From a virus (Duplodnaviria; Caudoviricetes), in IMG/VR virus record IMGVR_UViG_3300025751_000013, positions 1-64,000 of that record: 64,000 bases of DNA, one strand, 5' to 3'. Position numbers and translations under genes: made by a program. The notes beneath the pieces are model-generated. The model made no database searches. It was given only the letters and a program-made list of their open reading frames with translations, and had not been told where the DNA came from. Shown here piece after piece: positions 6,434 to 64,000 of this stretch. Each line of letters begins with the position of its first letter. Position 1 is the first letter of the stretch.

Positions 6434-6462
6434 TTGACAAATTTAACTACATAGTTTATAAT
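6434..6462 (+). promoter_or_regulatory. Consensus sigma70 promoter for the late sigma factor gene
   Basis: TTGACA (6434-6439), 17 nt spacer, TATAAT (6457-6462). Confidence 0.85.
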
Positions 6463-7336: not shown

Positions 7337-7365
7337 TTGACATCTCAATACTTTCCTGTTATAAT
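7337..7365 (+). promoter_or_regulatory. Consensus sigma70 promoter with extended -10 for the gp47-gp46-hemC unit
   Basis: TTGACA (7337-7342), 17 nt spacer, TG-n-TATAAT (7360-7365). Confidence 0.85.
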
Positions 7366-7388: not shown

Positions 7389-8402
7389 TTGTTTAAAAAA
7401 GCGGCAGTATTTACTGACATACATTTTGGCCTAAAAAGTAACAGTAAAATGCATAATCAAGACTGTGAAGATTACATCGATTGGTATATAAAAACTGCAA
7501 AAGAGCATGGTTGTGAAACTGCTCTTTTTTGTGGTGATTGGAATCACAATCGAAACAGCCTAAACTTAACTACTATGGATGCAGGCATCCGCAGTTTAGA
7601 AAAAATCGGTGCAGCGTTTGACAACTTTTACATGTTTGCTGGTAATCACGACTTGTATTACAAAGATAAACGTGATGTAAAGTCTACTGAATTTGCAAAA
7701 CACATACCGGGTGTTACTGTTATTGACGAAATATGGGAGCAAGACGATGTTGCGTTAGTTCCTTGGTTAGTCGGTGACGAGTGGAAGAAAATGTCTAAGA
7801 TTAAAAGCAAATATTTGTTCGGACATTTTGAACTACCCAGTTTCTATATGAATGCTATGGTGCAAATGCCCGATCACGGTGAACTAAAGTCGGAACACTT
7901 TGTAAACCAAGAATATGTGTTTTCAGGACACTTTCATAAAAGACAGAAACAAGGACATATACACTATATAGGAAACGCATTTCCACACAATTATGCAGAT
8001 GCTAGTGACGATGCACGTGGCATGATGATTCTTGACAAAGAAAACAACGCCGAGCCTTTGTACATCGATTGGGAAGATTGTCCAAAATATAGAAATACAA
8101 CACTTAGTAAACTACTCGATCCTAAGAGCAGTCTTATTAAACCTAAAATGCATCTACGTGTTACACTAGATATTCCTATTAGTTTTGAAGAAGCAGGGTT
8201 CTTAAAAGAAACGTATATTAAACAATATAACTGTAGAGAGATTACACTTATTAGCCAACGTCAAACTGAAGAAATTAATACAGATTTAGACATCAGCCAA
8301 TTTGCAAGTGTTGATCAAATTGTGTCAAACGAAATTTCACAACTAGATACTGAAAACTATAGCAAGAAAACGCTATTAGATATTTACAACGGGTTACAAT
8401 GA
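7389..8402 (+). CDS. gp47: Recombination nuclease, Mre11/SbcD-like (T4 gp47)
   Basis: Metallophosphoesterase motifs DIHFG, GDW, GNHD, GHF and SGHFH; TTG start. Confidence 0.92.
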   Translation: MFKKAAVFTDIHFGLKSNSKMHNQDCEDYIDWYIKTAKEHGCETALFCGDWNHNRNSLNLTTMDAGIRSLEKIGAAFDNFYMFAGNHDLYYKDKRDVKSTEFAKHIPGVTVIDEIWEQDDVALVPWLVGDEWKKMSKIKSKYLFGHFELPSFYMNAMVQMPDHGELKSEHFVNQEYVFSGHFHKRQKQGHIHYIGNAFPHNYADASDDARGMMILDKENNAEPLYIDWEDCPKYRNTTLSKLLDPKSSLIKPKMHLRVTLDIPISFEEAGFLKETYIKQYNCREITLISQRQTEEINTDLDISQFASVDQIVSNEISQLDTENYSKKTLLDIYNGLQ

Positions 8403-10171
8403 TAAAGATTAAGGATTTAACAGTAAAAAACTTTATGAGTGTAGGTAATGTAAGTCAAGGTGTTGACTTTGATCAACAAAGCCTTACACTCGTGCTCGGC
8501 GAAAACTTAGATCAAGGAGGTGACGATTCGGGTTCCCGTAACGGTACAGGTAAAACAACAATCATTAATGCATTGTCATACGCTTTATATGGCCAGGCTC
8601 TGACCAACATTAAGAGAAACAACCTTATTAATAAAACTAATTCAAAAGGTATGCTAGTTACACTTAGTTTTGAAAAGAATAATATAAATTATAGAATTGA
8701 ACGTGGACGTTCTCCTAATATTCTTAAGTTTTATGTAGATAATACCGAACAAGTTGAAGAAGACGAGTCACAAGGCGATAGTCGCAAAACACAAGAAAGT
8801 ATACAAGAACTATTGGGCATGAGTCATGATATGTTTAAACATATTTTAGCACTTAATACATATTCTGAACCATTTTTAAGTATGCGAGCTAATGATCAAC
8901 GTGCTATTATCGAACAGTTATTAGGTATTACATTACTAAGTGAAAAAGCCGATTCGTTAAAAGACGAAATTAAGCGTACTAAAGAGGCTATTACAGAAGA
9001 AACATTTAAATTAAACGCAATCGAAAGTGCTAATCAAAAAATACAAACTACAATTGACAGTTTAGGTAAAAATCAACGTGCATGGGTTGCAAAACGCAGT
9101 TCTGACGAAGAAAAACTAGTAACTGCTATCGAAGAATTAGAAAAACTAGACATTGATGCTGAATTAGATGCACACGAAAAATTAGCAAACTGGACAGAAC
9201 ATAATAATTCTATTTTGGCTCTTAGAAAAGAATTAAGCACACTAGAACCTGCACTAATACGTGCTGACAAAAGTGTAACCAAAGCAGAAAAAGATATTGC
9301 AGAACTAGAAGATGCTACTTGTTATACTTGTGGACAAGAACTTCATGCAGACAAAAAAGCAGAGATTGCAGAACGCAAAGGAAAAGAACTAGAAGATGCT
9401 ATTGCTTATCAAACAGAAATTACTGGAAAAGTAAAAGATGTTGCACTTGCTCTTAAAGAAATTGGTGATATTAATGGTCGTCCTACTACATTCTACGAAA
9501 CTGCAAAAGAAGCATACGAACATAGAAACAATGTTAAAAACTTGCAAAATGCATTAGTAAACAAACAAGCAGAAGTTGATCCGTATGAAGTACAAATTAA
9601 CGAACTAACAAGTACTGCACTACAAGATCTTGACTGGAGTATCATAAACAATCTTACAGAGTTTAAAGAGCATCAAGAGTTTCTATTAAAATTATTAACT
9701 AACAAAGATTCGTTTATACGTAAGAAAATTATTGATCAGAATTTAGCATATCTCAACAATAGGCTAACTTATTACTTAGATGTATTAGGATTACCACATC
9801 AAGTACAATTTTTAAACGACTTAAATGTTGAAATTACACAACTAGGACAAGATCTAGACTTTGATAATTTGTCAAGAGGTGAACGCAATAGACTTATACT
9901 CGGACTATCGTTTGCATTCCGTGATGTTTGGGAAAGTTTATACCAAGGAATTAATTTATTGTTCATTGACGAACTTATCGATTCAGGAATGGATAGTGCA
10001 GGTGTTGAAAACTCAATCAGTGTACTTAAAAAAATGACTAGAGAACGCAAGAAAAACATTTTCCTCATATCTCACAAAGATGAACTAGTTGGAAGGGTAA
10101 ACAATGTATTAAAGGTTGTAAAAGAAAACGGATTTACTTCTTATGCAAACGATTTGGAGATTGTAGAATGA
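8399..10171 (+). CDS. gp46: Recombination ATPase, Rad50/SbcC-like (T4 gp46)
   Basis: Walker A NGTGKTT, coiled coil with CYTCGQ zinc hook, LSRGE signature, LFIDE Walker B and ISH. Confidence 0.93.
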   Translation: MIKIKDLTVKNFMSVGNVSQGVDFDQQSLTLVLGENLDQGGDDSGSRNGTGKTTIINALSYALYGQALTNIKRNNLINKTNSKGMLVTLSFEKNNINYRIERGRSPNILKFYVDNTEQVEEDESQGDSRKTQESIQELLGMSHDMFKHILALNTYSEPFLSMRANDQRAIIEQLLGITLLSEKADSLKDEIKRTKEAITEETFKLNAIESANQKIQTTIDSLGKNQRAWVAKRSSDEEKLVTAIEELEKLDIDAELDAHEKLANWTEHNNSILALRKELSTLEPALIRADKSVTKAEKDIAELEDATCYTCGQELHADKKAEIAERKGKELEDAIAYQTEITGKVKDVALALKEIGDINGRPTTFYETAKEAYEHRNNVKNLQNALVNKQAEVDPYEVQINELTSTALQDLDWSIINNLTEFKEHQEFLLKLLTNKDSFIRKKIIDQNLAYLNNRLTYYLDVLGLPHQVQFLNDLNVEITQLGQDLDFDNLSRGERNRLILGLSFAFRDVWESLYQGINLLFIDELIDSGMDSAGVENSISVLKKMTRERKKNIFLISHKDELVGRVNNVLKVVKENGFTSYANDLEIVE

Positions 10172-11007
10172 TTAAAATTGGTGTAAGAGGTAGTAAATTA
10201 GCACTTGCATATGCCGATATTGTTGTTAACAGAATAAAAACAAACTTTAAACCAATTGTAGATATACAAATTGTTCCTATTAAAACAGATGGCGACATTT
10301 ATGCTAAAAAAAATATAGCAGAAATAGGCGGAAAGGGTGTTTTTGTCACAAAAATCGAACAAGAGTTGTTAGCAGGCAATATTGATTTAGCAGTTCATAG
10401 TTTTAAAGATCTTCCTAAGGACTTAGACGATAGAACAGAAATTCGTGCAGTAATGCCAAGGCATGATCCGCGTGATGCTGTTATCGGAAATCTAGTCGAC
10501 GGTTGTAAAATAGGCACAAGTAGTCCTAGACGTAAATTACAACTTGCAAAAATGTTTCCTAACAGTGAAATACTTCCAATAAGAGGTAATATTGACACAA
10601 GAATACAAAAAGTTCGTGACAACGAGTACGATGCTACAATTTTAGCAATGGCAGGACTTGATACAATGAACTTAGGTCACGAAATAAACAAGATACTAGC
10701 ATTAGAAGAATTAGTACCAGCTGTAGGACAAGGAGTTATTGCTGTACAGTCATTAAAAAATCAAAATACAGTATTATTAGAGAAAATTAATCACTTAGAA
10801 ACATATCAGTGTGCAATGGCAGAACGTAACATGCTTCAAATGGTTGACGGTGATTGTGATACCGCTATTGGATCAATTACAAGTATCATTGGCGATATAA
10901 TTTCGCTCGAAGCATACAATTACGAAAATAATAAATCTGTAAAAATGCAATCTAAAGCAATTGATTATCTTAATCTAGGCGAATTAGCTGGTAATAGAAT
11001 AAAATGA
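10168..11007 (+). CDS. hemC: Porphobilinogen deaminase (hydroxymethylbilane synthase), auxiliary metabolic gene
   Basis: RGSKLAL, GGKGVF, DLAVHSFKD (catalytic Asp), GTSSPRR, RGNIDTR, ILAMAGL, PAVGQG, AER..GDC (cofactor Cys). ATGA overlaps on both sides. Confidence 0.93.
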   Translation: MIKIGVRGSKLALAYADIVVNRIKTNFKPIVDIQIVPIKTDGDIYAKKNIAEIGGKGVFVTKIEQELLAGNIDLAVHSFKDLPKDLDDRTEIRAVMPRHDPRDAVIGNLVDGCKIGTSSPRRKLQLAKMFPNSEILPIRGNIDTRIQKVRDNEYDATILAMAGLDTMNLGHEINKILALEELVPAVGQGVIAVQSLKNQNTVLLEKINHLETYQCAMAERNMLQMVDGDCDTAIGSITSIIGDIISLEAYNYENNKSVKMQSKAIDYLNLGELAGNRIK

Positions 11008-11225
11008 ACAACGAAGACGACTTACATACACAATTAGTTCAAGCATACTTAGAATATTTTAAGGCAAATGAATGGTGGGAAAGGAAAAACTCAGTTAGAG
11101 CATATTCCGCAGTTCAAAAGGCAACAAGAGAAATACGTAGAATAGCAAGAGAACGAAATACTGAAATAAAAGAGATACAAAAAGACTATAAAATCAAGTT
11201 TAAAGGCAAACAATACAAGGATTGA
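11004..11225 (+). CDS. Small basic helical hypothetical protein
   Basis: 73 aa, translationally coupled to hemC. Confidence 0.6.
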   Translation: MNNEDDLHTQLVQAYLEYFKANEWWERKNSVRAYSAVQKATREIRRIARERNTEIKEIQKDYKIKFKGKQYKD

Positions 11226-11235
11226 TAAACATTGT

Positions 11236-11670
11236 ATGAATTGGACATATAATGGCGACGAAGTTACAGAAATACCAGATGAGTATGAAGGTTTTGTTTA
11301 CATTATTACTAATTTAACAGATGATCGCAAATACATAGGCAAAAAACTAGCAAAATTTAAAACTACTAAGCCACCCTTAAAAGGCAAAAAAAATAAAAGA
11401 CGCGGATACAAAGAATCAGACTGGAAAGACTATTGGGGGTCTTCAGATAAACTATTAGCAGACGTAGAAAAATTAGGCAAAGACAAGTTCACAAGAGAAA
11501 TACTATATTTTTGTAAAAGCAGAGGCGAAATGTCTTACTTAGAGGCAAGAGAACAGTTTAGTAGGCGAGTATTAGAGACGGACGAGTATTATAACGGTAT
11601 AATAAACGTGCGTGTAGGCGGATCAAACATACTTAGAGAAAATTTAAAGGCACATCAGGACACTATTTAA
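11236..11670 (+). CDS. Small GIY-YIG endonuclease (Seg-like)
   Basis: GFVYIITNLTDDRKYIGKK, ESDWKDYWGSS, YLEAREQ, YYNGII; preceded by a late-promoter-like ATAAACA at 11225-11231. Confidence 0.85.
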   Translation: MNWTYNGDEVTEIPDEYEGFVYIITNLTDDRKYIGKKLAKFKTTKPPLKGKKNKRRGYKESDWKDYWGSSDKLLADVEKLGKDKFTREILYFCKSRGEMSYLEAREQFSRRVLETDEYYNGIINVRVGGSNILRENLKAHQDTI

Positions 11671-12018
11671 AAGCCAAAATCCAGCCGAGGTAATGCTCGT
11701 CGCCGGTGGAGTGGTAAAGTCCAACAGGCTGTATGCTACGAAAACCCCTTAGCACTAGGAACGAAGCGGGGGATAGCGCATTTTGCGTGATGTCGACGTA
11801 GGTTGGGAAAGGTCAGAGCCCAGTAGCAAAGTCAAATACCTACTTCCAATGTCTCGACTATGATACTCACATGAAGATATCTTCGAGGACGACGGGACCC
11901 TGCAAGGTTCCGTCTGACTAATTAATCTACATGAAACTATTACTTCACATTCGTTCAGTTAAAAAGAAGAAATATAGTTTGAGCGATAGCGAAAACTTAT
12001 ATCTACGAAGTAGATATA
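11671..12018 (+). ncRNA. Unidentified structured non-coding element (RNA or ssDNA) directly downstream of the GIY-YIG gene
   Basis: No ORF, more GC-rich than its flanks, several helices and a probable pseudoknot (see findings). Strand inferred from context. Confidence 0.6.
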
Positions 12019-12025
12019 CTAAATA
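12019..12025 (+). promoter_or_regulatory. Late promoter (CTAAATA), nearly leaderless
   Basis: TAAATA core 5 nt before the ATG at 12031. Confidence 0.55.
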
Positions 12026-12030
12026 TATAC

Positions 12031-33951: not shown

Positions 33952-36900
33952 ATGTCAACAATAAGACTCAAGAGAAGTGCTGAGCCGGGTAAAATCCCAT
34001 CGATTGAACAACTAGAACTAGGCGAAGTAGCTGTCAATACACATGACGGCAAAATGTTTATGAAAAGAGACCAAAGTGGTAACTTTGCTATAAAAGAATT
34101 TGGCGCAAGAGACGCCGCAAGTAATGTGTTTTACGTAACACAAGACGGATCTAATACTAACGATGGTAAAACAATAGGAGACGCATTTGCGACTATTGAT
34201 TACGCTTTAAAAAATATTCCAGAGGGATCAACACTATATGTAAAGGCTGGACAGCACACAGTTGACAATCCAGTTAAACTTCCGGCATTTGTTGCTATTG
34301 TTGGTGACTCACTTAGAACTACATTTGTACAACCAAAAAATCCAGCAGAAGATATATTTTGGGTTAACAACGGTTGTTTCCTTAAAGATATGCGCTTTAA
34401 TAACTACATTGCACCTAGTGCAGCAGTTTCGTTCCCCCCAGATGGAAGCGCCGGATCAATTATGTGTTCACCGTATGTACAAAACTGTACATCATATACT
34501 ACAACTGGTACAGGTATGCGAGTTGACGGATCAGTTGTTACTGGCCTACGCTCAATGGTTGTTGACGCCTATACACAGTATAACCAGGGTGGTATTGGTG
34601 TGCATCACCTTAACAGAGGTAACACACAGCTTGTTTCGATCTTTACAATTTCATGTGATATTTCGATTCTTTGCGAAAGCGGCGGCTTTTGCTCACTAAC
34701 TAACTCAAACACATCATTTGGTAACTACGGACTTATTTCCGATGGTTATAGTGAAGCACTATTTGGTGCGTCTGCTGGTGCTAACATTAGTAGAAACTCG
34801 ATGTTTATGAATGACCTAGTAACGGTTCCATTTATTCAAAACGCATCTGTGTTTAGTGGCACTGGTGAAGTTTATACAATTTCAGAAGCTACTCCGATTA
34901 AAGTCGGTCAAGGTGTTGTAACTGGACCAACACTAACCCAAGAAGACAGTGATTTATTATTTGCTAGAGAAAGAATTTTAGCCAATAGAGAAGTAATTCA
35001 AAGATCAACAGTTAACTTTGTGAAAGATAATTATCAAACAGGCGGCGAATTTGACGAAGCTAAATGTGCTAGAGATAGTCAACTTATACTTGATGGTGTA
35101 GGTTTTGATGTTGCACTAGATACAAACTTTAACAGTGTTTATAATGGTATTTCGTATCAAAGAGCAAATGCTAAATTTGTTATTAATACCCAGTTTGAAG
35201 CAACAAAAGGCGCAATTGATTTCTTAAAAGCCGAAACAGCAGCTTTACTAAGTGGTACTTCATTAACTAGAGCTAATGCAGGATTTGACGATGTAAAAGG
35301 AATTCTTGACGGTGGTGTAATAAGCACTACAGTTCCAGGAGATGGTGTAGCCGACGCACTTACATTTAGTTCAACACTAGGTGTAACAGATGGTATAAAT
35401 GCTAGAACAATTTTACAAGCGAATATTGCATTCTTACAAGCAGAAGTACTTGCATTTAACGATGATTATAATGCAACGGCGATTGCTGCTGACGCTACCG
35501 GTGCAACTACAGTAGTTTATGATAGAGAAAAGTGTCAAAGAGATGTACAATACATTGTAGACGCTCTTTCATATGACGCACAGTATGGTGGCAATAGCGC
35601 AACAGTATCGGCTATGAATTCTTATATTGTTGGTACAGGAATTGATCAACTTCCAGCAGATCAAAGAGATCTTACTGCTGATTCATATGCTCACTTAGCA
35701 GATATGGTTGCAGCAATTTTAACTGATCCGTCAGTTGATCCTGGTACAAAATTAAGTGCTGGTAGTCCAGACAATTCCGCAGCGGTTACTGCTGCATCTC
35801 TTTCAGGTACAATCGAAGCACTTGTAGATACATTTGCAGGAGTATTAATTGAAGATGCAACGCCGGCTGGCACACCAACTGCAACTATTCCAGCAGTAGT
35901 AACTCCAAATGTTACAACATTGGGTGTAGCAGCAGAGTTTACAACATCGCAAACTGCAATCACAAATGCGTCTGCACAAATTGTAGATGATGTAATTGCA
36001 TTTGTTAATCAAGAATATAATTTCTCTTTCAACCAAGAAAAATGTGCAAGAGATTTACAAGAAATAATTGATGCAGCTAAAATAGATGCTGTTACAAACT
36101 CTTTGTACAATCAAACTGTAGTTGGTTTAACATACACAATGGAAAGTAGTGCTTATCTACTTAACTTACAAAAAACACAAACCGCAGCAGGTATTCAATA
36201 TGCTAGAGATTTAGTTACAGCAGACGGTAATTTTACAGATACTACAGACAGAACTGAATTTATTAATGCTGTAAACGAAGTAATTAACATATTAAATACA
36301 GGAACTCCAACATCTGACTTAACAACTGGTACTTTTGCAACTAATTTTCCAACAAGCACTGATTATTCTAATGCAGCAAGTCGTGCAGCCGCAGCTGAAG
36401 CAATAATAAACGGTATTCCTTCTTTACAGACTGATGCTCTAACTTTCCTACAGAATGGGAACGCAGGTGGTGGTTTTGATTTTTCAGCCCAAGCCGGAGA
36501 ATTTTCAAGTTTAGCTAGTGGAGGTACTGTTTCATCAGATGAACTAAAATCAGTATACCAAGATATGGTAAGAGATGGAACATTTACCAAGTGTCAAAGA
36601 GACGTGGCTTACTTAGCACAAGCAGTAGCATTTGATACAATGTATGGTGGTAATAGTGCAACTTTGCGTGTAGCAAAATCATACTTTGTAGGTGCAATTG
36701 CAGGTGACGACGATACTGAAATATCACAACTAGGTGGCGGACAAAAGAATGCAACACTTGCACTATATGCCTTCTTGGCAGTACAAATTGCGGCAGCTGT
36801 TAGCGCTGCGTCAGCAAATGCAGGGTTAGGTTCGGGCTCTGGTGCATCAAAAACAATTAATCAATTAGTTGCAGTTGTTACTGATCATATTGACGCAGAC

Positions 36901-39900
36901 GGTGTAGCATTAGCTTCTTTAGATACAGTTATACTTGCCAGCCCTGCCGACGACGATGAAATTCTAACAGTATCTGAAATTGAAGCAGTTGACGACGAAG
37001 CAATTAATGATACAATATTCTATCTACAAGATGCATTTGTACTACTAGACTTTAACGAGTCTAAGTGCTACAGAGATACAGGTATTATTATTGATGCTGT
37101 TGTAGATGACATGGTACTAGGAACAAATTATAAATCAGTAGTTTCTGGTAGAACATATTCAATGGATTCAGCGGCACTTGTTATTGCGGATCAAAAAGTA
37201 GAAACATTAGCAGCAATAAATCATGCAAGAGACGAAGCACTAGGATTTATCAATGACTTTTCGTCTAATGCTTCAAAAGTTACAGCATATAATAGAGTAC
37301 AGTCAAACTTTAATTTGATTTCTGATTTAATTAGTAAGTCAGAGTATGCATTTAAATCATATACAGTAGTAGACGCAGATTACAATCCGACGGCTGCTGG
37401 TAACTATGGTAGTACTTCTACTCCTGCAAACAGAGTTATGACATTAACAATTGGCCAGCATAGTTTTACAACATCAGATACAGTTGTAATTGCTCCTAAT
37501 AGTTTAACATTCCAGTGTTATTCAAGTGGTGATAATGAGTTCCAAACTATTACACATCCAAGAGAAGTAGCAGGTCAAAGTGCAGATCCAAATGCAGTAT
37601 CTCCAGGTTCAGATCCAGCATTTGAAACTCCAGTAGATATTGTTGCAGTTACAGACACTACAATTACAGTAGACGTTGGTGTAAATACTGGTGCTGGTAA
37701 TGTTGAGCATACATTTATTAGTGCTACAGAAAATGGTATAACATATGGTAATTCGTTTATTAATTATCCAATGCCAACAAATGTTCTACCAGAAATAAAC
37801 AGAGCGTTTACAAACATCAAGAAAAACAAAGCATATTTGATTGAAGAAGCAGTTGCTCATATCGATCAAAACTATCCGTTACTAGGATACGACAGAGGAA
37901 CATGCGAAAGAGATATCGGACTTATAATTGATGCTGTGTCATACGATGCAATGTTTGACTCAAACTTCCGTTCAATTACAGCTGGTAAAGCATATCTAAG
38001 AGGTGTTATACAAGTTATAACAGGTGATGTACTTGTAGATGAAACAACTACTACAACAGGTATTACTGGTACACTATTAACAATGGATCCAACTAAAACA
38101 GTAGTAAATCCAGGTGACGAGTTAACAGTTCTACCAACTGAGCAAAAAATTGCAACACTAGAATCATTTAGAAAACTAAGAGATTTACTTGTTCAGATTA
38201 CATTTGATAATGATACAAAGGCACGTGTAGTAGACCGTATGGATCTTATTATAGATATTGTACAAGATGGCGAATCAGTAATTCCAGCAGTAAGTATTCC
38301 TACAGCAAACATTACAACTAACGACACAGTAAACTATACAGAAAACTTTAATGCAACTGGTGTTCCAGAAACAATTACAAACATTGAAAATTCGAGAGAA
38401 TTTATTATTGCAGAAACAAAGGCATTTATTGATACTAACTTCCCAGCATTATTATCAACTGATGCTAACGGTAATATTGTCCGAGACTATAATGCAAACG
38501 ACAAGTGTGAAAGAGACGTAGGTCTTATATTAGATGCACTAAAATATGACTTAACATATGGCGGTAATATGGAAACCTTAATAGCTGGTAAAGCATACTT
38601 CTCAGATGTTGTTGCATCAGCAGATGGACCAGTTGATTTATTAGGTTCACGTTCAGTAAACATAGATATTGTTAATGCTGGTGGTATTCAACTGATTAAT
38701 CCAATTACAATTACAACATCTATTAAACATGGCTTAGTTGATGGATCACAAGTAACACTACTAGATATTAGTGGCGTTGTTGAACTAACAGGTAAAACTT
38801 TCTTTGTTAAGAAAGTAAGCGACACAGTGTTTGAATTATATGATGATGCAGCCCTAACAATCCCATTAGACGGTACTACTGGATTTACAGCATATGCTAA
38901 CTTAGGTGGTACTGTAAGAGTTAATGCAGCAGAAGTAATTGCTACTGTAGAGTCTTATAACTTCCTAGCAGATCTAATATTGACACTAGGTAATGGTGTT
39001 GCTCCAGTTAATCCACAGCAAACAATTGTTACAGCAGGAGCACTGACAACAACTAACAGTCCAAATGGTACTAGAGCAAAATCACTTGTTGACGATATTA
39101 TTACTATAATTGAAAACGATAGCTCTGTTCCAGTTGAGTTGCTTGCAGATCCAAGTTGGGTCACTGGCTACAATGCAACCGAAACATATCCGTTAGAATT
39201 AAATGGCACCGATCTTTATTCAGACTTCTTGATTATGCAAGGTGAAAAAGATGATATACAATCAGAAATTACAAGATTTATTGAAGCAAACTTTGCTTAT
39301 GATAAAAAAGTATGCCGTAGAGATATGGGATACATTATTGATGCTACATTATTTGATGCACTATACAACGGTAACAGTGCAAGTTATGATGCAGCAAGAC
39401 AATACTATACACAAGGTAAACTAGTTATTCCAGCAATCCAGCGTAAAGCAACAGGTGACGCAATGGAACTTCTTAGAAAGCGTATAGGTGATGTACTACG
39501 TTCAAACAGAGTTGTTGCAGAACAACTTCCAACATCGCCGACATTAGTGCTACAAGATACAACTACTCCAGCAGCCACAATTACTGAAATTCTAAGAATT
39601 CAGAAAAACTTTGATGTACTTGAAAGTCAAATACGTAGAGATTATTTCATCAATGACTTTATTGATGTAATTGATCCTGACTTTAATCTTCAAACAGAAA
39701 CAGCAAACAAAATTAGAAATAAGATACTTGCTGAAAAAGAAAACCTACAGGTTAAAACAATTAAATTTATCGATACAACATTTAGAGAATTCCGTTTTGA
39801 TAGAGAAGTTTGCTCAAGAGACGTAGGACTTATTTTAGATGCAGTTGCAATGGATGTTGCACTAGGTACTAACTATAATTCAATTATTGCAGGTCTATCA

Positions 39901-42900
39901 TATCAAAGAGGTAGTTTGTCAATTGGTACTGTTAAAGATGAGCAGAAGCCACAAACAATAGCAGCTATTGAATTCCTAAAAACAGAAACACTAGCAATTT
40001 CAGGACTGTCAGCAACAGGTATTGCAAGAGCAACAGCAGCATTTGATGAAATTATAGACATCTTTACAAATGGTGAAACAAGTACTAGAACAGCAGCAGA
40101 TGCAATTACATATCCAGTTCCGACAGGTGTTGATACTAACAAACAAAACTCACATGACTTGTTACGTGCTAACAGAGACTTTATATCTGAAGAGATTATT
40201 GAATGGATTGAAGATAACTTTACAAACTTTGAATATGATGAGTTTAAGTGTGAAAGAGACACAAGAATTATACTAGATGCAATTGCACTAGACGCAGCTC
40301 TAAATACAAACTATAACACAATTACAGTAGCACTTGCATACAAGCGTGTAAATGCACAACTAGTAATTACAGATCAGTTGATACAAACTGTAGCAGCTAT
40401 GGATTATCTACGCAAATTAGTAGACGAAAACAAAGATCTAAGTGTTATTGGTCGTGCAAGAATGACACGTTTAATCGATGATATTATAGAAATTGTACAA
40501 TCAGATACAACTGACTTAGATGTATTTGACAGTACAAACTTTGATAGTACACTACTTAACGCATACGAAAACATTGAAATGAATGCACCTAAAAATGCAA
40601 CACAAGATGAAATCGATGCCAAAGAGCAGTTAAAACTTAACAAAGAATTCTTAGCAAGTGAAGTATTAGCGTTTATCAACTTAAACAATCCGACACTAGA
40701 CTATGTTGAAGCTAAGTGTAAAAGAGACGTTAAATTCTTACTTGATGCAGCAGCATTTGACTTACTATACGGTGGTAACTCAGCAACTGTACAAGCGGCT
40801 AATAGCTACTTTGTAGGAACAGCTAACCAGTTAGGTGATGACGAAGTACAAGCAACAATCGATGCTTATAACCATTTAAAAACTGTTATTGAACCAGTTG
40901 TACTTGCAACTAGTGAAGATAACAATCCAGTATATGTACCAACAGCTGGTAATAGTATGCGTCAAATTATCGAAAGTGATCCAGGAACAGCTACTGAAGT
41001 TGCAGCTATTCAAGCATCGCTTGATATTGTTATTGCTAGAATACAAGGCACACCGACACCAACACTAGTTAAGCCAAGTTTAACAGGTGCTGATGCTAAC
41101 TTAATTAAAGACTTTAATGAAATATCAGAGACTGCTTCAGTAGAAGCACAGAAAGTTGTAGATTATGTAAATGATCAATTTGCAAACTTTACATATGATA
41201 TTGACAAGTGTGCAAGAGATGTTAAACTAGTTGTACTAGGCGCAGCAATTGACTTAGAGTATTCAACTAACTATAACAGTGTAACTAATGGTCTTTCATA
41301 CCTAAGAGGAAATGCTAAGAAAGTTTCAAACGCATTCCAAAAAGCAATTACACTAGCCGCACTTGATAAACTAAAAACACTAGCAGCTACAACTATCGGA
41401 ACAGGTACAGGTTATGCAGCAGCAGTAACAGCAGTTAATGCAAGTATTGATACAGTAAAAACAATATTTGATGAAGGTTTAGTTGGCATAACACCAACAA
41501 ACGCTGTATATGATCCAACAACAGGTGTTATGGATCTTACAATTGGCGAGCATACATTCATACAAGGTGATACAATTACACTAGAGCCAGGCAGCTTGAA
41601 ATTTACTTGTGCAAGTGACGGAAACAACGTTGTACAAGCATACCCAAGAACAAGTGATCCGGCATTTAATTATACACTAAAAATTATTGACACTGGTAAA
41701 CTAACAATAAGTGTAAACGTTGGAGTATCATCAGAAACATCAGCGCACACATTTATTACAGCAGATGAAAAAGCAATTAAAACTGGTGCTCTTCCAAATG
41801 CAGTTCCGGCGCTAACATTTGCAGGTATAGATGCAACAAATGACTCGGCTTATGCAGCAAAAGCAATACTTGCTAACAAAGCGTTTATTGCAGCAGAGAT
41901 GTCAGCATATGTTGTAAATGATCCTAACTTTATACTAGTTGGTAACTACGATGAAACAAAATGTCGTAGAGATTCAAATAATATATTAGATGCAGTTGCA
42001 TTAGATTTGCGTACAGGTTCAAACTATAACTCACTATATGCAGGTATTGCATACACAAGAGCAAATAGTGATTATGTAATTAGTGCCCAAAAATCAGCAA
42101 CAATAGCAGCTATTGAATTCTTAAGAGATACTGTAAAAGCACTATCAAATGTTGATGCAGCAGCAGACACAAGAATTGATTCACTATTTGCAATTATTAT
42201 CGCAGCAATTAACAGTGGCGCTACAAGCACGTTGCTTCCAGGAGGCGCTACAGGCGTTCCACTATTAAGTCTTCCAACTCCGAATACTCCAATTGCAGGC
42301 GGCGCAGATGCAGCAGCACGTTTAACATATAACAGAGATGCGTTAGCAGAAGAAGTACTAGAACACATTAACCAAAATGCAAATGCTATATACCTATCTA
42401 TGGATCAAGCTAAATGTTCAAGAGATGTAAAATACATTGTTGAAGGACTAGCACATGATGCAGTATATGGTGGTAACATTGGTGCTAAACTAAATGGCGA
42501 AGCATACTTTGTAGGTAACGATACTGAACAGTTAGGCATTGGTCAAAGATCTGCAACAGTAGCAGCATATCAACATCTTGCACAAGTAATAGAGCAGTTA
42601 GTCGGCGCAGGTGTAGCTGATGCTGGATTCACTAGCGTAATATTAGTAGCTAACCCAACTCAAGCGTGGAGTGATAATTCAGTACCTAATGCAGCAACAA
42701 TAGCAACTTACTTAGCAGACAGTTCAACTGGGTTAATTGAAACTTGCATAGTTGCACCTATTAATGCAAACAAATTGGCTAACTTCTACACACCAACAGC
42801 GGCATCATATGTTCCAACTACAGGTGTACTAACACTTACTGTAACTGGTAATCCGTTCTCAAATGGTGATACAATTAGACTAGCAGAACGTAGCATTGGA

Positions 42901-45900
42901 TTTAAATGTCAAAGTGATGGATTTAGAAAAGTATTCTACTATCCAAGAACAACTGATCCAGCACTTAACTCAGACTTAACAATAAGTAACGTAGTAGGTG
43001 ATAGTTTTGACGTCCAGATTGGTGTATCATCAGAAGAAAGTACACATCAGTTCGTAGGACCAGCTACAAATGCAATCATTGATAGCACATTACCAGATGA
43101 TGTACAACCAGCAAGTGCTCAGTATGTAACAACTGTATCGTTCACAGATGCAGCAACAGCAATTGTTGCAGGATCAGGAACAGCAGTAGATTCAACAATA
43201 TCTTATATCAATTCAGATCTAAGCTTTAACCAAACTAAGTGTGAAAGAGACACAGGTTACATTGTTGAAGCATTAACACATGATACATTGTACGGCGGCA
43301 ATTATGCAACTACACAAGCAGCTCTAGCTTATAGAGTTGGTGTCGCAGGACAGTTAGGTAGTAATTCACCTGAAACTACAGCAACAGTAGCAGCATATGG
43401 TACACGTTTACCAGCAGTAGTACAAGCAATTGTTCAAGGCGATGCACTAACACCGTCAACAGGCAATTCAGTGACTCAAGTTGCAAATGCAAATACAGTA
43501 AGCCCGTGGACTAATGCTAATGCAACTATTGCAGCAGATATTCAAAATATTGTAGATGTTATTGAGCATGGCGGTGATCCACTATCAGTTGATGCTTCGA
43601 TGATAGCAGAAACTAACATAACTGAAGGTACAATATATGATGCAGAATCAGGTGTACTAACACTAACACTTAGCGGCACATCTACAGGACTAGTAGCAGG
43701 TACAAGCACAATTAGACTAGCACGTAATAGTTTAACATTTACTTGTGCAAGTGATTCACATGCTACTTCATTAACATATCCAGACAAAGATAGTTTTGGT
43801 TATGATAGAGAATTAAGAGTATTAAGTGTTGCAGAAGCAGGTAACACAACTATTACTGTTAACATAGGTAATGCACGTAAACTAGGTGCTACTTCAGCAG
43901 ATAGAATACACAGATTTGTAAGTGCAGCAGCTAATGCAGTTGTATTACCAATTTCACCAACAAGACCAACTATAGCAAACACATTTGCTACATCACTTGT
44001 AACAAAAGCCGATGCAGCAAGCGATAACTTTGGTGATTTGATAAATGCATATCTACTATCAGACTTCCCAACAAGCACATACGATAGAACACGTTGTAAG
44101 CGTGATGTAGGATTTATTGTAGACGCTCTATCATACGATGTACTATATGGCGGTAACAGCGCAATGCGTGAAGTTGCAAGAAGCTACTTTAGCTTTGGTC
44201 TAAACTTACTAGGTGATGATTCTAAAGAAACAGATGCAACAATATTTGCATATGAGCACCTAAGTAGTATTATTGGAGAGATTGTACAAGGTGTACAAGT
44301 AGGAAAAGCTACAGGTAACTTATTAGTACAAACATATGATACAGCAAGTACACTAGCAGAAGCAGCAGTTGCTCAAACACTACTAAAACTAGTTACAGAT
44401 ACAATTAGAGATAGAAGTGTTAATAAGCTAGATGAGCAAGAGCTACCAGATATTACTTGGGCAGCGTCAGAATTCCAAAATGACTTTGCAAGCATTACTT
44501 TTAACAAGTCAGTAGCACAAGCTGATACACTACAGTTTATTGACGATAGATACACAACATTTAGTTACGATCAGTTTAAGTGTTCAAGAGACGTTGGATT
44601 GATCTTAGATGCTGTTTTAGCTGATATGGTAATGGGTGGTAACTACCAGTCATTACTAGCAGGAAGCAGTTATTACAGAGCAAGTGCGTTTATTGTAAAA
44701 GGCGATCAGCTACCAGAAACAATTGAATCAATCAAATTCTTGAAGAAAGAAGTTGAGAAAATCTTAACAGATCCATTGTTTACAGCAACAGTTGTTCCAG
44801 GTACATATCCTAACCCAACTATAAGAGCTATTACTCCGTTAGAAGCTATTGAAAATGCTAAAACACTAACTGAAGTATTTGGTGATACGCAAGAGTATGC
44901 AGATCTTATTGCAAGATTTAATGATGTTCTTAGAGTTATGGAAAATGGACTAACTAACGCAGCTGAAGATCAAATACAATTTGTTGCTCCAACTGGAATT
45001 ACAGGAACAAGAACTAATGCTAAAGACATATTACTTGCAAACAAAGAATTCTTTGTTGAAGAGTCAGTGGCGTTTATCAAAGAAAACTTCCCACTAATTG
45101 GATATGACAGACAGACTTGTGAAAGAGATGTAGGACTAGTTCTTGATGCTCTAGGGTTTGACTTAATGTTTGGTTCAAATATGCGTAGTATTACAGCAGG
45201 TAGATCTTACTTTAGAGAAGGCGCTGCTGTTGTAAGTGCAGATCAAAAGAAAGCAACACTAGCAGCATTTGAATTCTTAAAAGTTAAAGCAGCAGAAGTT
45301 GTAAGCAGTGCAATACTATCAAATGGTTCTTACGTAGCACCAGGCGGAAATAAAGAATTTATCATAACAGTAGGTGCTGACTCATATGAACAAAAACCAA
45401 CTGGTGTATTCTACTTAGATGGTATAGAGCAGCCGATAATAGAACTAGATCCAGGTGCAGTATATACCTTTAATCAAGATGATCCAACTAACGCTTACTT
45501 TGGCGATAATCGTCATCCTCTAGTGTTTAGCACAACAAGAGATGGTGATAATGCAGGTGGTACAACTTATGACACTGGTATTGCTTACTACTTAGACGGT
45601 GTATCAGTTGACGAAGCACAGTACGAAAGAGGATTTGCTAGAGCAACACTACGTAGAGTAGAACTTGATCTTAGAGGCAAGTATACAACAGAACTATACT
45701 ATGCAGGCGGCGCCCGCAAAGGTATGGGTAACTTAATCTACGTAAAAGCAAAAACAACAGGTGAACCGATTAAAAAGTCTATACAAGATAATATGAATGT
45801 TATTCTTGCACTTCTTGATAGAGGTAATGTTACTTGGCAGCCATATGATGCAGAATATAAAACAGTAGGCACAGATACAAGTGGTAATCTAAAACTTTAC

Positions 45901-63300: not shown

Positions 63301-64000
63301 TGATGCAGGTGTCGGTAGTAATTCTACATTCGCTGTTAATGGTGCAGACGGTAACACACAAATAGCAGGTACATTAGGTGTAGACGGTCTAGCATCGTTA
63401 AATGCAAGTTTGACTGTTACTGGACTTACAACAACTGATACAGCAGTAGTTAACAATACACTCAATGTAACTGGTGCAACAACGCTAGACGGAACATTTG
63501 CTGTACAAAACGCAGGAGCAGACGTATTTACAGTCGCCGATGCAACAGGAAATACAGTAATTTCAGGAACACTTCAAGCAGGTAATACCACTGTAGCAGA
63601 CGTAACTGCAACCGGAACTGGAACTATAACTGGTAACTTTGATGTAAACACTACTGCATTTACTGTTGCAGCAGCAACAGGTAACACTGATATACTTGGC
63701 GATTTAGCAGTTAACACAACGGCTCTTACAGTAGCAGCAGCAACAGGTAATACTACAGTAGGTGGAACACTTGATGTAGCAGGTGATACAAACTTTAACA
63801 GTACTACAGGAAGCACATTAAGTACTAATGGTGCAGTAGTAATTGATGGCGGTCTAGGTGTTGCAGAAAATATTAATTTTGGTGGTGTGTTAAAGACAAC
63901 GACAGCAACAGCAAGTACAGATACAGTAACAGGATCAATTGTTACCGCAGGCGGCGTTGGTATAGCAGGCGCTTTAAATGTCGGTGGTGTAACACATATT
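51332..64000 (+). CDS. Giant (>4200 aa) beta-repeat fibre protein, 3' end outside the window
   Basis: ATG at 51332 (MSFISTTRV..); the same frame reads IAGALNVGGVTHI at the window end. The track lists no closed + ORF here, which implies no stop. Dense G(N/D)(V/L)xG and DGG repeats. Confidence 0.85.
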   Translation, partial: MSFISTTRVIENNQEVLFEGPLDKESNVHTVAVLNEGVSPNSTTDPIKVTLSLYDASEPATRPFAILEVAPGTDAQYTKVINIRPGDQLRAETDGGEVTIMIGAFVDEDTLVTSIFNITGQYDHTVTYQPYDVAYYLGSTYVNTTVDQTAVYPTQVNGGWTPLGSGFNAYGEFDPLVLYPPLSVVKWANNVYVTVTGSPVGVYPNDYNSTWISFTSLTSDEIPDTSGVSANVAASITILNNRLNTLTTTEVPEASDADLEAASGFENAYFTRARARESISVTGDLIYDVNTGVLSAQTLTQDDVNIFIDNRVSKSFVDALGVDADTVDGIEGTVLARTDISPTFSQNIIVSGEMRGDLRGNVLADDSSIIINHATKEINGRFEGTLIAANSDVILNTGIDGFDATFTGTTFGEHRGDVLSDDSNVIIDASSGLISGDLEGNVTATFGVSRFNDIITDNIIVQEELQVANILGNITSTGVSTFNNVDINGGYIDNAVINTTNITGTTIVGTYIEAQTGGFRGDILSTGTSRFNDLIVTGDLTFNTLEVQALADFKSLVNIDGGLTVGGTLNVTGGTTFGNINVTGGQISGVTLGSGSYPVDIVADDVTILNSFTATDVTAEFSTLIVTDEMTGDVSGNLRGNVLSQDGTTVIIDAFAGIIRGDLVGDTVGQHTGNVDGNVVGNVTGNVTAAAGLSSFSSMNAQIGDIAALEAGSLTVTGAASFTGDLTFDTLQIASLAVNNTLTVSGISTLGSVDIGGGTMDAVTIGGNVPASVTGTIFTGDKMFADLFTGSLKGVVEGSVEGDLYGNVLGLDSSIVLNTSTARATLDADVTGQIDATANGGGESRFDDITITGVFSLQGGGQLTGDLTGNVVGDVTGDVYASNGDKILETGNGTTIPAKLTGNVEGEVLGTFTGTASGDFTGDVFAYDSTKMLDAFSNILRGDLVGNVSGNVLGDLTGNVNTTGTQSDGFFRNLTVEDTLTFPSLNISTIDSDNIDVDNAILDVVTIGAGITTGTIDNTTIGATTPRGGVFTTLQGAIIEASSEFRGNIVSSGSSRFNELIVTGDFVANLRGDIIAEDSSVIVNNATKTFYGTLQGTTVGTLQGNVIATSGLSEFNSINVAQEISGTLRGDVVAPDSTLLIDISSQNINGNVITATGGFSGEITGTLVGDIKATGGQVVLDSGTDGTDATFAGNVTGNVLNTLGETVLDANAERLTGTLAGNVYAIDGISQILDSGTDGTDAVFTGQVIGDVTGNVTASSGVSNFNNIVIANEAVGNFKGNVLAADSSVLVNYLDSSITAATITATGNFVGDVIGNVDTRTVDVNTRSYFQNITVLGEIDLSGASGNITADIEGTLKGNVVSTTGDPNAADVLLLDAAGRSILNMASISSNEFTGDEFIGDFLGDLYSADGSFRVLDTGATGNQAYYIGDMRGNVQGNLLGDDSSVIVNYVSGDINGRVVSSSQGFQGKIEDPNNNMSSLYDLTIRNNLFVEGTTTTVNTDNLDIKDNTIVLNKGQSDGVTGVVLGTAGIQIDRGNGVDANLLWTEDGGAGYWDFTNTAQVRGAFRGNVTGDVYSPFNSGTPILDTGTATLPATYIGNVVGDIEGNVTVGAGLSSFFSVNVEEEIAGNLRGNVLANDSTKIIDFINSNIYGATISATAGFSGDVFGNIDARGESSASYSYFQNLSVSGDIQFDSLNIATLEVGTDLNVGNNVDVTGQITAGSVDIAGGEIDGTIIGSNVASAASVTTLTVTTGDINVTQGTINITQGNLSADTIFAVTDFRGNLVGNVTGSLSGGTVTGDVYGNLYRPGGTTPVLNTGTGGVEPRLYGNVTGNVTGDVLGDVTGNVQGVLYGSVISEDSTTTIVNASSGLITGDINSSGTSTFNNIVVEGALDFTTFALNEITVNTLLQVDGTANLTVANIFAGNIDNTRIGVTTPSTIKGTVIEATTKFVGDIAGEVDGNVTGDLRGNIIGEDSSVIVDNDLKRFTGNLLGDVYTTDGVTLFNILDSGTDGTDASIIADVKTPLGATIVDTSAATVTATGGFTGQIDASAPGTSQFHTVTVSNNLSVPGTVNVTQTVEASGGIENTSIGAGNTESTGAFTSITTTGAVTVGGDLIVQGNTVTLNTSTLDVEDLNITVAKGAANAAAADGAGLTVDTAGAWIQYKNPSDQWRFNKDIDLTTENVRLLGNITSTGVSNFSGTANFSGTVDMAGATINNSTFQNMDVAATSEFSGNMTLDTAANFTMINAAGTPVTVFSIDGSNGNTTISQGGQFEILDTLSASMFSVDGGTGNTLVTGTLGVDGIVSINNTTGSTTTTTGALIVDGGVGIAENLFIGGNLDVAGNAVISGNLTFGDAATDTVAFGADINSSIIPDINNTYDLGSSAQAWRELYLTQNINFKGATGDNEIIVPTNLFDALSIKDDANTSIIDVETTTGAPVVKINPNTTVAGTLDVTGETTLASAIISDVNPSRVVLSGGSKEISYSDQFTYSAGAGVIDVDITGSLAVDNLTFDGNTISSTDSNGAIILDPQGSGVVTVNANTTISGTFTSTGLASLDNGIDVNGAVFTVSNTGAVNTTSTLDVTGLASLDGGIDVDGAFTVANTTGNITTSGTLDITGTTTLRNTVGIQGITTISNANDASNATSGALIVSGGAGIAKKLFVAGDFEVGTNRFNVAATTGDTTVAGDFTVTSGTAFLDGGINVDSGAFIVANTTGDITTLGDISIADSKKLLIGTGNDLEIFHDGSNSFIKDVGAGNLTIATDVLTLTKGDGTKTTAVLDADGATELYYNNTKRFETTLVGADVTGTFNTSGLATLDSAVISDLPANRIVYTSGANGRLISTADFVIDGTSLNVGSNNFVVTAATGNTAIVGTLDVTGETTVGNLVADDIKLGDGEKIQFGNAQDLEIYHDGSNSYIHESGTGGLILRSANSILFQDATSTKTAMSLTANGSQILYHNDVQRFQTTVSGADITGDVDISGTLDVDGNFQVGTSRFNVEATTGNTQIDGTLTADGLTTLNGGITADGGVFTVADGTGNIATSGTLNVTGDTTLSTLTATSDVTVQGDLTVEGNLTTVNATEINVSDKNITLGGTTTTLSALNNSGITIGGTLGAGSNPALTYTYTGVSPNQVERFNLNRELIVDKVHGDIKGNVYASDDTSIILNAGTNGNDAIFKGDVYSTTDTLIIDSGASIDDATFYGNIDLRTETNYGNTPSTGTTSYFNNLDVAGTLSMANASIGTLSGNLVGDIYASNGTSLILDNGTNGTDASFQGNIKNDNGTVIIQNGSTGVAATFTGKLVGDVDSSGISYFNNMYANVINAFLDGDISGSVLGEDSVMMLDAGARTLSVTDVQTSTITASSYLSGDVRGDIYNNNGTQKILETGGTATDAAIFTGRVDASNAINTTSNFNNVDATGIFTGVLGAVGNTANAFVNDLTVDSVATFTGVVNALTSAVNINSVNIDGGTIDGTVIGAATPAAITGTTVTANTGFVGNITGNITGDLDARGLGGTTFIDDLVMGPGTNAAIDTATITTLNASTLVLTNLALSGDLDVLTGTGTFQNLEVTAGGNIVGLATLGTSASPVASSVITTIDVSAGDIVGLSTLGTSASPVIAADIDTAVIDDVTSVTVRADNFTITNTGDSAHKFTGPLEGNITSAGTSTFTGTVSLSGATVVLADNQLSGDKIDGGVIGNADLLGNGTSNTISGYDITVTGALDLTGATVTYDNDSISGDKVSGGTIDAANITGGAGKTLDGYDITVGAGRTLTVNGSTSVATLAASALVELDGGFNVNDDFVVDVDGNTRLNAAANFEIWNAAGTPVKVFDIVGSTGATTIANTLDVVGPVSITTGTGSTSTSTGSLTVTGGVGISENAFVGGDLDVAANAQLSGTLDVDGVTNINNTLTVDSLASLDGGIAVSDGAAGDAFTVAVTTGNVVTTGTLDVTGLSSLDGGIDVNGSNYTVSAAGAVTQASTLDVSGDVTLLQSANFEIFDAGVGSNSTFAVNGADGNTQIAGTLGVDGLASLNASLTVTGLTTTDTAVVNNTLNVTGATTLDGTFAVQNAGADVFTVADATGNTVISGTLQAGNTTVADVTATGTGTITGNFDVNTTAFTVAAATGNTDILGDLAVNTTALTVAAATGNTTVGGTLDVAGDTNFNSTTGSTLSTNGAVVIDGGLGVAENINFGGVLKTTTATASTDTVTGSIVTAGGVGIAGALNVGGVTHI

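Follow-up and report, generated by a model that had tools for sequence, protein, structure and literature searches.

The DNA window analysed here, the first 64 kb (positions 1 to 64,000) of the 109.9-kb IMG/VR viral record IMGVR_UViG_3300025751_000013 (G000; about 30% complete according to CheckV), carries on its + strand, at positions 10168-11007, a hemC gene encoding a hydroxymethylbilane synthase of 279 amino acids (aa). Sequence comparisons and structural modelling make it likely that this gene encodes a working, virus-adapted enzyme and acts as an auxiliary metabolic gene. Phage genes for both ends of the tetrapyrrole pathway (ALA synthase at one end, heme oxygenase and PcyX at the other) have been published; the hemC of G000 shows that viruses carry the middle section as well, in the form of a trimmed enzyme clade present across several phage lineages. 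The enzyme would join four porphobilinogen units into hydroxymethylbilane inside the infected cell, and flux through the common tetrapyrrole trunk could be kept or raised as host gene expression falls.

A first-pass annotation, made from the letters alone, had read the gene as a 279-aa hemC with the catalytic Asp, the Arg motifs and the cofactor Cys, and our analyses bear this out. The protein scores 270 bits with the NCBIfam hemC equivalog TIGR00212 (cut-off 164) and 222 bits with the Pfam family PF01379 (6e-66; cut-off 22.1), and its best solved relatives are the HemC proteins of B. megaterium, V. cholerae and E. coli (E ~3e-43). In an alignment with 28 relatives (29 sequences), residues R7, S9, K80, D81, R121, R122, R139, R145 and C230 are invariant; C230 sits in a G-D-C motif and is retained even in the viral HemC forms of 245 aa. 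On the basis of E. coli numbering and HMMER alignments, we take these residues to correspond to E. coli R11, S13, K83, D84, R131, R132, R149, R155 and C242, and presumably to form the substrate-binding Arg set, the Lys-Asp pair of the active site and the Cys that carries the cofactor. An AlphaFold2 model of the protein (predicted local distance difference test, pLDDT, 92.9; predicted template modelling score, pTM, 0.90) superposes on E. coli 1PDA with a template modelling (TM) score of 0.91 and a root-mean-square deviation of 2.4 Å.

The viral protein resembles cellular HemC (E. coli 1PDA, B. megaterium 4MLQ) in its modelled three-domain fold, substrate Arg residues, Lys-Asp pair and cofactor Cys. 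It differs in its length (279 aa versus ~300-320 aa), in its identity of only 33-44% to any cellular or solved HemC, and in its location, a recombination operon of a phage, where no hemD accompanies it. The C-terminal domain is indeed shortened, as had been noticed at the outset: domain 3 has lost its final helix and four residues, an inter-domain loop of 7 residues after RDAVIG is also missing, and the shortened C-terminus is a trait of the entire viral clade rather than of this gene alone. We regard the protein as confirmed, at the level of sequence, to be an intact phage-borne HemC, which is presumably active as an enzyme.

The relatives of this HemC are themselves largely found on viral DNA. 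A profile scan detected HemC relatives on at least 220 IMG/VR contigs; the nearest ones outside its close kin (50-54% identity, 273-280 aa) are viral, and members of the clade recur on contigs of 338-372 kb. Viral HemC proteins are 245-285 aa long, versus mostly 290-320 aa for the cellular ones, and represent natural minimal forms of a well-studied enzyme. The shortest of them (245-248 aa; L155:3188-3925, L160, L161 and L162) end soon after the cofactor Cys, with most of domain 3 missing, and form their own starred subclade in the tree. In a maximum-likelihood tree, 36 viral HemC group together to one side of a branch, with an SH-aLRT of 92 for 35 of them, and the Pelagibacteraceae adjoin. The best cellular identity, 41-44% in an alignment-based scan of genome contigs, is also to Pelagibacteraceae, and a scan of genome contigs with a member of the short clade gave no match; a cellular source of the clade was not found in these scans. 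The use of HemC phylogeny to deduce the host had been proposed; since our LG+G4 tree was a quick one in which compositional bias was flagged, we claim neither donor nor host from it. In these searches, the short HemC clade appears confined to viral contigs, across several phage lineages. The proteins that G000 shares with the hemC-bearing contigs G002-G004 are few, and HemC is one of the best conserved in this set, which argues for exchange of hemC among phages.

The collection of deposited phages contains 10 records with a HemC match, 33-39% identical. Several of them come from bacterial genomes or are short fragments with no annotation and, given this and their low identity, these deposited 'phage' records look like host sequence. 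Host contamination was also considered as the source of the hemC of G000 and was rejected, its synteny being phage-specific. A short viral-type HemC (P0024; 295 aa, 52% identical) is labelled 'MAG: Euryarchaeota archaeon'; its 75-kb contig may come from a phage and have been binned with an archaeal metagenome-assembled genome (MAG).

The gene is embedded among recombination genes. A sigma-70-type promoter (TTGACA, 17-nt spacer, TG, TATAAT) at 7337-7365 on the + strand matches the consensus in 12/12 positions and has the extended TG. The claim that hemC lies under a consensus sigma70 promoter therefore stands as regards the promoter itself, but this element is located before gp47, 2.8 kb upstream of hemC, and not at hemC. 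A second 12/12 site is found at 6434-6462, and no terminator-like site was detected between the 7337-7365 promoter and hemC on the + strand of the scanned region. Because this promoter precedes gp47, hemC would be the third gene of a gp47-gp46-hemC-orf73 operon. Its first gene encodes a gp47-like SbcD/Mre11 nuclease subunit (7389-8402, +; Pfam Metallophos, 1.9e-6) and the second a gp46-like SbcC/Rad50 ATPase subunit (8399-10171, +; Pfam AAA_23 and SMC_N, with a sub-cut-off match to the Rad50 zinc hook); parts of gp47-gp46 show ~66% nucleotide identity to PA5oct-type jumbo phages (21% query coverage), where the annotation is SbcD-like. The ATGA overlap between gp46 and hemC, already noted in the first pass, can be read directly (gp46 stop/hemC start, 10168-10171), and a second one joins the hemC stop to the start of orf73 (11004-11007); a GGAG stands 8 nt ahead of the hemC ATG. 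The gene orf73 (11004-11225, +), coding for a small conserved protein with no match in Pfam or PHROG, lies downstream of hemC in all group A loci, and is followed here by a SegE-like GIY-YIG homing endonuclease (11236-11670, +; Pfam PF19835, 3.9e-35). With this arrangement, a host-type promoter would drive hemC together with gp47 and gp46, the early recombination genes; the promoter type suggests early expression.

The major capsid protein of the record shows 67-72% identity to its counterparts in PA5oct, Serratia phage BF, Vibrio phage 2.275.O and Sinorhizobium phage Phosso, whose genomes measure 285-470 kb. The lineage is that of a jumbo phage of roughly 330-360 kb with a PA5oct-type capsid. 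Three contigs are closer still: G005 (262 kb, CheckV completeness 73%, capsid identity 84%), G009 (328 kb, 92% and 79%, respectively) and G012 (119 kb, 34% and 78%). G005 is collinear with G000, with matches for 46 of the 70 proteins and with positions 2-109 kb of G000 corresponding to 190-90 kb of G005. G009 is also collinear with G000, its record beginning elsewhere in the gene order.

Comparison of loci indicates that hemC is an optional, mobile cassette; the slot that it fills, bounded by gp46 and a SegE-type homing endonuclease, is variable. In 10 IMG/VR loci, the HemC proteins are 75-96% identical and the row gp55-gp47-gp46-hemC-orf73-SegE is kept. G005, G009 and G012 retain gp55-gp47-gp46 and SegE and have no hemC: the gp46-SegE slot of G009 and G012 is empty or holds other small open reading frames (ORFs), and in G005 gp46 is directly followed by a weak and short match to orf73 (30 residues at 57% identity). 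The same slot is occupied in L155 and L156 by hemE and a 245-aa hemC of a different subclade, the mini HemC being found in the gp46 slot of L155, L156 and L161, where G000 has the 279-aa type. The ratio of nonsynonymous to synonymous substitution rates (dN/dS) of hemC versus its close kin is 0.05-0.19, with dS up to 1.7 (gp46, 0.07-0.11); judged by these ratios, hemC is under purifying selection. The cassette would have been taken from a pool of short HemC genes common to several marine phage lineages.

We then analysed which other tetrapyrrole genes accompany hemC. The first-pass annotation saw no heme oxygenase, bilin reductase or lyase in the window, and this extends to the whole 109.9-kb record, in which heme oxygenase (PF01126), Fe_bilin_red (PF05996), the CpeT family and HEM4 gave no match and hemE, hemB, hemF and ALA synthase were not found by tblastn. 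It had suggested a search of the rest of the genome for these and other hem genes; over the 110 kb of the record the outcome was negative. CpeT-family lyases gave no match in G003, G004, G005 or G009 either, the CpcS and CpcE/F families not having been searched.

The relatives present a different inventory. G005 contains hemO (19.7-20.3 kb), pcyX (19.0-19.7 kb) and an ALA synthase gene (54.4-55.6 kb; 70% identical to the group B enzyme described below), all of them in the part of the genome past the end of the G000 record. In G009, hemO and a gene for a ferredoxin-dependent bilin reductase (FDBR) are found at 163.5-164.7 kb, and ALA synthase is absent. The lineage very probably makes hemO and PcyX, and the G000 phage itself probably has both genes too. 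Since its closest relatives carry hemO plus an FDBR gene, a route to phycoerythrobilin is likely to be available in this lineage.

Other viral lineages carry hemC within larger clusters. Group B loci have the order hemF-hemC-hemE-hemB, with a 402-aa ALA synthase nearby (TIGR01821, 579 bits; PDB 2bwn, 2e-133); at L093:9049-20803 (and L092-L107) this row is followed by ribose-phosphate pyrophosphokinase, a fatty-acid desaturase and ALA synthase, and close relatives of the L093 HemC occur on contigs of ~340 kb. In group C loci, hemC-hemE follows nrdA and nrdB. Within 10 kb of hemC, hemE was found at 39 loci, hemF at 16, hemB at 12 and ALA synthase at 7. A heme oxygenase adjoins an FDBR in both G003 (group B) and G004 (group C), the G004 reductase being PcyX (PDB 5owg, 4.6e-69). 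Relatives of pcyX are present on 295 viral contigs, and six contigs are common to the best 80 of the 220 hemC contigs and the best 80 of these 295, most viral contigs being fragments. These data support the view that the hemC of G000 belongs to a viral tetrapyrrole gene pool including heme oxygenase and PcyX; that pool would also hold hemE, hemF, hemB and ALA synthase.

A further protein is shared with pcyX-bearing contigs. It has 161 aa, is encoded outside the window (G000:92628-93113; L280:628-1110), has homologues of 45-66% identity beside pcyX in at least 13 viral contigs and no Pfam match, and from its sequence looks like a coiled-coil with a hydrophobic C-terminal tail. A bilin function for it was not adopted, its adjacency to pcyX being taken as shared synteny.

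The first-pass annotation had connected hemC with a fibre-like protein of 4,958 aa (33952-48828, +) that contains 22 repeats with K-C-x-R-D...I-x-D-A and was proposed as a bilin acceptor. Across the repeat alignment, C89 and D92 do not vary and the conservation of R91 is at least 90%; we assume that the C-x-R-D motif equates to the Cys84 attachment site of the phycobiliproteins. A model of the repeat (pLDDT 74) gave Foldseek matches in PDB with E-values of 0.05-0.3, TM scores of 0.4-0.5 and probabilities of ~1, and all matches at listed ranks 1-50 are phycobiliprotein-type bilin-binding proteins, with weak E-values. A Pfam scan found no match to PF00502 in the fibre protein. Among ~50,700 deposited phage records, the repeat domain is found in 328, and 327 of these are cyanomyoviruses; the 10 phage records that match HemC include none of the cyanophage records with the domain. 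One cyanophage, P-RSM6 (L163, CPXG_00128), has an 8,573-aa virion structural protein with both motif types of the G000 fibre, K-C-x-R-D...I-D-A and S-L-T-F-T-C...D...H-x-Y-P.

Co-occurrence of the repeat with tetrapyrrole genes, which had been put forward as a check, holds in part. The domain is present in 4/4 large pcyX contigs, as well as in G002, G004 and the syntenic fibre region of G009; repeat-profile matches lie at 133 and 152 kb of G005, where the Cys motif is kept in 2/3. A back-translated motif scan returned at least 120 viral stretches, unranked, and two of its five largest contigs are at least 90% complete, with an FDBR gene in G009 and psbA in G010. On the other hand, G002 (73% complete) encodes HemC and a repeat protein with no heme oxygenase or FDBR, and the domain is not detectable in Pelagibacter phage Mosig (L269, MT647606.1 31656-48333), which encodes hemO, pcyX, an annotated ferrochelatase and four 2-oxoglutarate (2OG)-Fe(II) oxygenases. 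The hemO/pcyX cluster of Mosig is located between the tail-fibre gene and the neck genes, and its fibre has a 48-aa segment of the N-terminal region and a 116-aa C-terminal module in common with the 4,958-aa fibre of G000, the repeats not being shared. In G005-G009, a bilin reductase occurs together with the repeat domain or its motif and hemC is absent, which means that a viral HemC is dispensable for the fibre. The idea of a tetrapyrrole supply is thus backed by the hemO and FDBR genes of the relatives and by the gene pool, but its assignment to the fibre is not: the connection between hemC and fibre is coherent though unproven, and hemC is not tied to the fibre.

The product of the enzyme could end as heme for respiration, or as heme opened by hemO and pcyX to phycoerythrobilin. 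That HemC contributes to a general supply of heme and cofactors, for cytochromes and tetrapyrrole enzymes powering the large burst of a ~350-kb genome, is a credible use to which we would give somewhat less than an even chance. It is the role proposed for viral ALA synthase and argued for vAlaS by Wegner et al. 2024 (PMC11480375), and a porphobilinogen deaminase is listed with the genes unique to a putatively deep-water pelagimyophage ecotype (Zaragoza-Solas et al. 2020, PMC7029224). Clustering of hemC with hemE and hemF, whose products direct the pathway into the protoporphyrin/heme branch, its presence in G002, where neither heme oxygenase nor FDBR is seen, and its early-type expression beside DNA metabolism genes point the same way. 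Such a use leaves unexplained why the same gene pool travels with the heme-destroying hemO and pcyX, and heme proteins would be expected to outlast a lytic cycle. In the reading of the first-pass annotation, HemC, helped by viral ALA synthase, hemO and pcyX from other parts of the same genome, would supply bilin for the 22 C-x-R-D fibre domains of a pigmented virion, which we find plausible but doubtful. Consistent with it are the uniformly phycobiliprotein-type Foldseek matches among the listed ranks and the conserved C, D and, nearly so, R; the collinear relatives with hemO and pcyX or another FDBR plus repeat-domain proteins in the syntenic fibre region; the domain in all four of the large pcyX contigs; and its near confinement, among the deposited phage records, to cyanomyoviruses, whose hosts make bilins. 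The two motif-bearing genomes of at least 90% completeness, one with FDBR and the other with psbA, are a further point in its favour. Group B contigs moreover have genes for ALA synthase, hemB, hemC, hemE and hemF, and G003 adds hemO and pcyX; bilin would be the likely product there, because heme would be built only to be opened. What hemO and pcyX are for in phages of this kind, with non-photosynthetic hosts, is termed enigmatic by Wegner et al. 2024 (PMC11480375).

Against a bilin supply for the fibre stand the lack of heme oxygenase, FDBR and CpeT lyase matches in G000 and of CpeT lyase matches in G003-G005 and G009, the hemC-free reductase-and-repeat genomes G005-G009, G002 with hemC and the domain and no heme oxygenase or FDBR at its 73% completeness, and Mosig with hemO and pcyX and no detectable domain. 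The Foldseek E-values are weak, the samples are small and their contigs interrelated, and an early hemC with a late fibre is compatible with this use without being diagnostic of it. In its strongest version, which we judge unlikely, this lineage would build a pigmented virion: phages that infect heterotrophs and have phycobiliprotein-like fibre domains would have to bring their own chromophore route (alaS, hemC and other hem genes, then hemO and pcyX), because their small hosts, lacking photosynthesis, would provide no bilin and not enough heme for the ~22 chromophores of each fibre chain in every particle, and the fibre would be the acceptor of the phycoerythrobilin made by PcyX. If the fibre domain did bind bilin, the acceptor of PcyX-made bilin would be identified, and under a pigmented virion the viral hemC would be a supply gene for a structural pigment. 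Finally, hemC might be a passenger cassette brought without benefit by the homing endonuclease or by recombination, or a contaminant from the host or from assembly. Relatives do differ in the slot adjoining SegE, and two unrelated HemC types occupy it in different phages; but the low dN/dS at dS up to 1.7 with all catalytic residues kept, translational coupling on both sides of the gene, the same synteny on 10 independent contigs, the distance from the nearest cellular HemC and a GC content resembling that of the flanks make this very improbable. Selection, coupling, synteny and distance from cellular HemC largely refute it.

Several observations also weigh against our preferred explanation, a working hydroxymethylbilane synthase adapted to the virus and serving as an auxiliary metabolic gene. 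The C-terminal domain family PF03900 matches with 23.9 bits, slightly under its 26-bit cut-off, and the protein has a 4-residue gap inside domain 3 besides lacking its last helix; because of this sub-threshold match and the missing helix, the stability or processivity of the truncated enzyme could differ from that of cellular HemC. HemD (uroporphyrinogen-III synthase, PF02602) is absent from five hemC-bearing viral records (G000 and G001-G004), even where hemC adjoins hemE, so that the HemC product would rely on the host HemD or otherwise cyclise to the dead-end isomer I. With no other hem gene in 110 kb, a lone hemC may add little flux unless its step limits the host. The closest relatives of this phage manage without hemC: G005 has the same gene row (gp46-orf73-SegE) with hemC missing.

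Phage-borne tetrapyrrole genes have precedents. The bilin genes of cyanophages, ho1, pebS, pcyA and cpeT, act after heme and in hosts that already make bilins; pcyA of cyanophages was seen among the records that we examined. They share with G000 the presence of tetrapyrrole genes in marine myoviruses, and cyanophages, like G000, have the C-x-R-D repeat domain in tail-fibre-like virion proteins. Viral alaS together with hemO and pcyA/X has been described, from aquatic phages resembling pelagimyophages, by Wegner et al. 2024 in Nat Commun (PMC11480375), who found alaS to be active; hemC, hemB and hemF are unmentioned in the main text of that paper. The hemC of G000 is likewise an auxiliary gene of the same pathway, the genes described there occur on viral hemC contigs of two other lineages, and G005 has a 'broken cassette' consisting of hemO-pcyX and a distant alaS. 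It differs in that hemO, FDBR and alaS were not seen in the 110 kb of G000 (~30% of the genome), and in its phage, a PA5oct-type jumbo phage of ~330-360 kb versus a 140-kb pelagimyophage. Porphobilinogen deaminase and coproporphyrinogen oxidase are reported from the putatively deep-water pelagimyophage ecotype by Zaragoza-Solas et al. 2020, mSystems (PMC7029224), where the mention takes one sentence and comes with no analysis of clade, structure or context; our group B and D contigs fit that description, whereas the hemC of G000 lies in a different phage lineage and locus. Nothing else relevant on phage hemC was found in full-text literature searches.

Neither the Rfam search of the window nor the tRNA search gave a match. 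Directly after the SegE-like gene, at 11671-12030, there is a GC-rich-looking non-coding stretch, with no Rfam match even at E-values up to 1. After the fibre genes, a single ORF of 9,511 aa takes up the window from 51332 to its end at 64000 and extends to position 79867 of the record.

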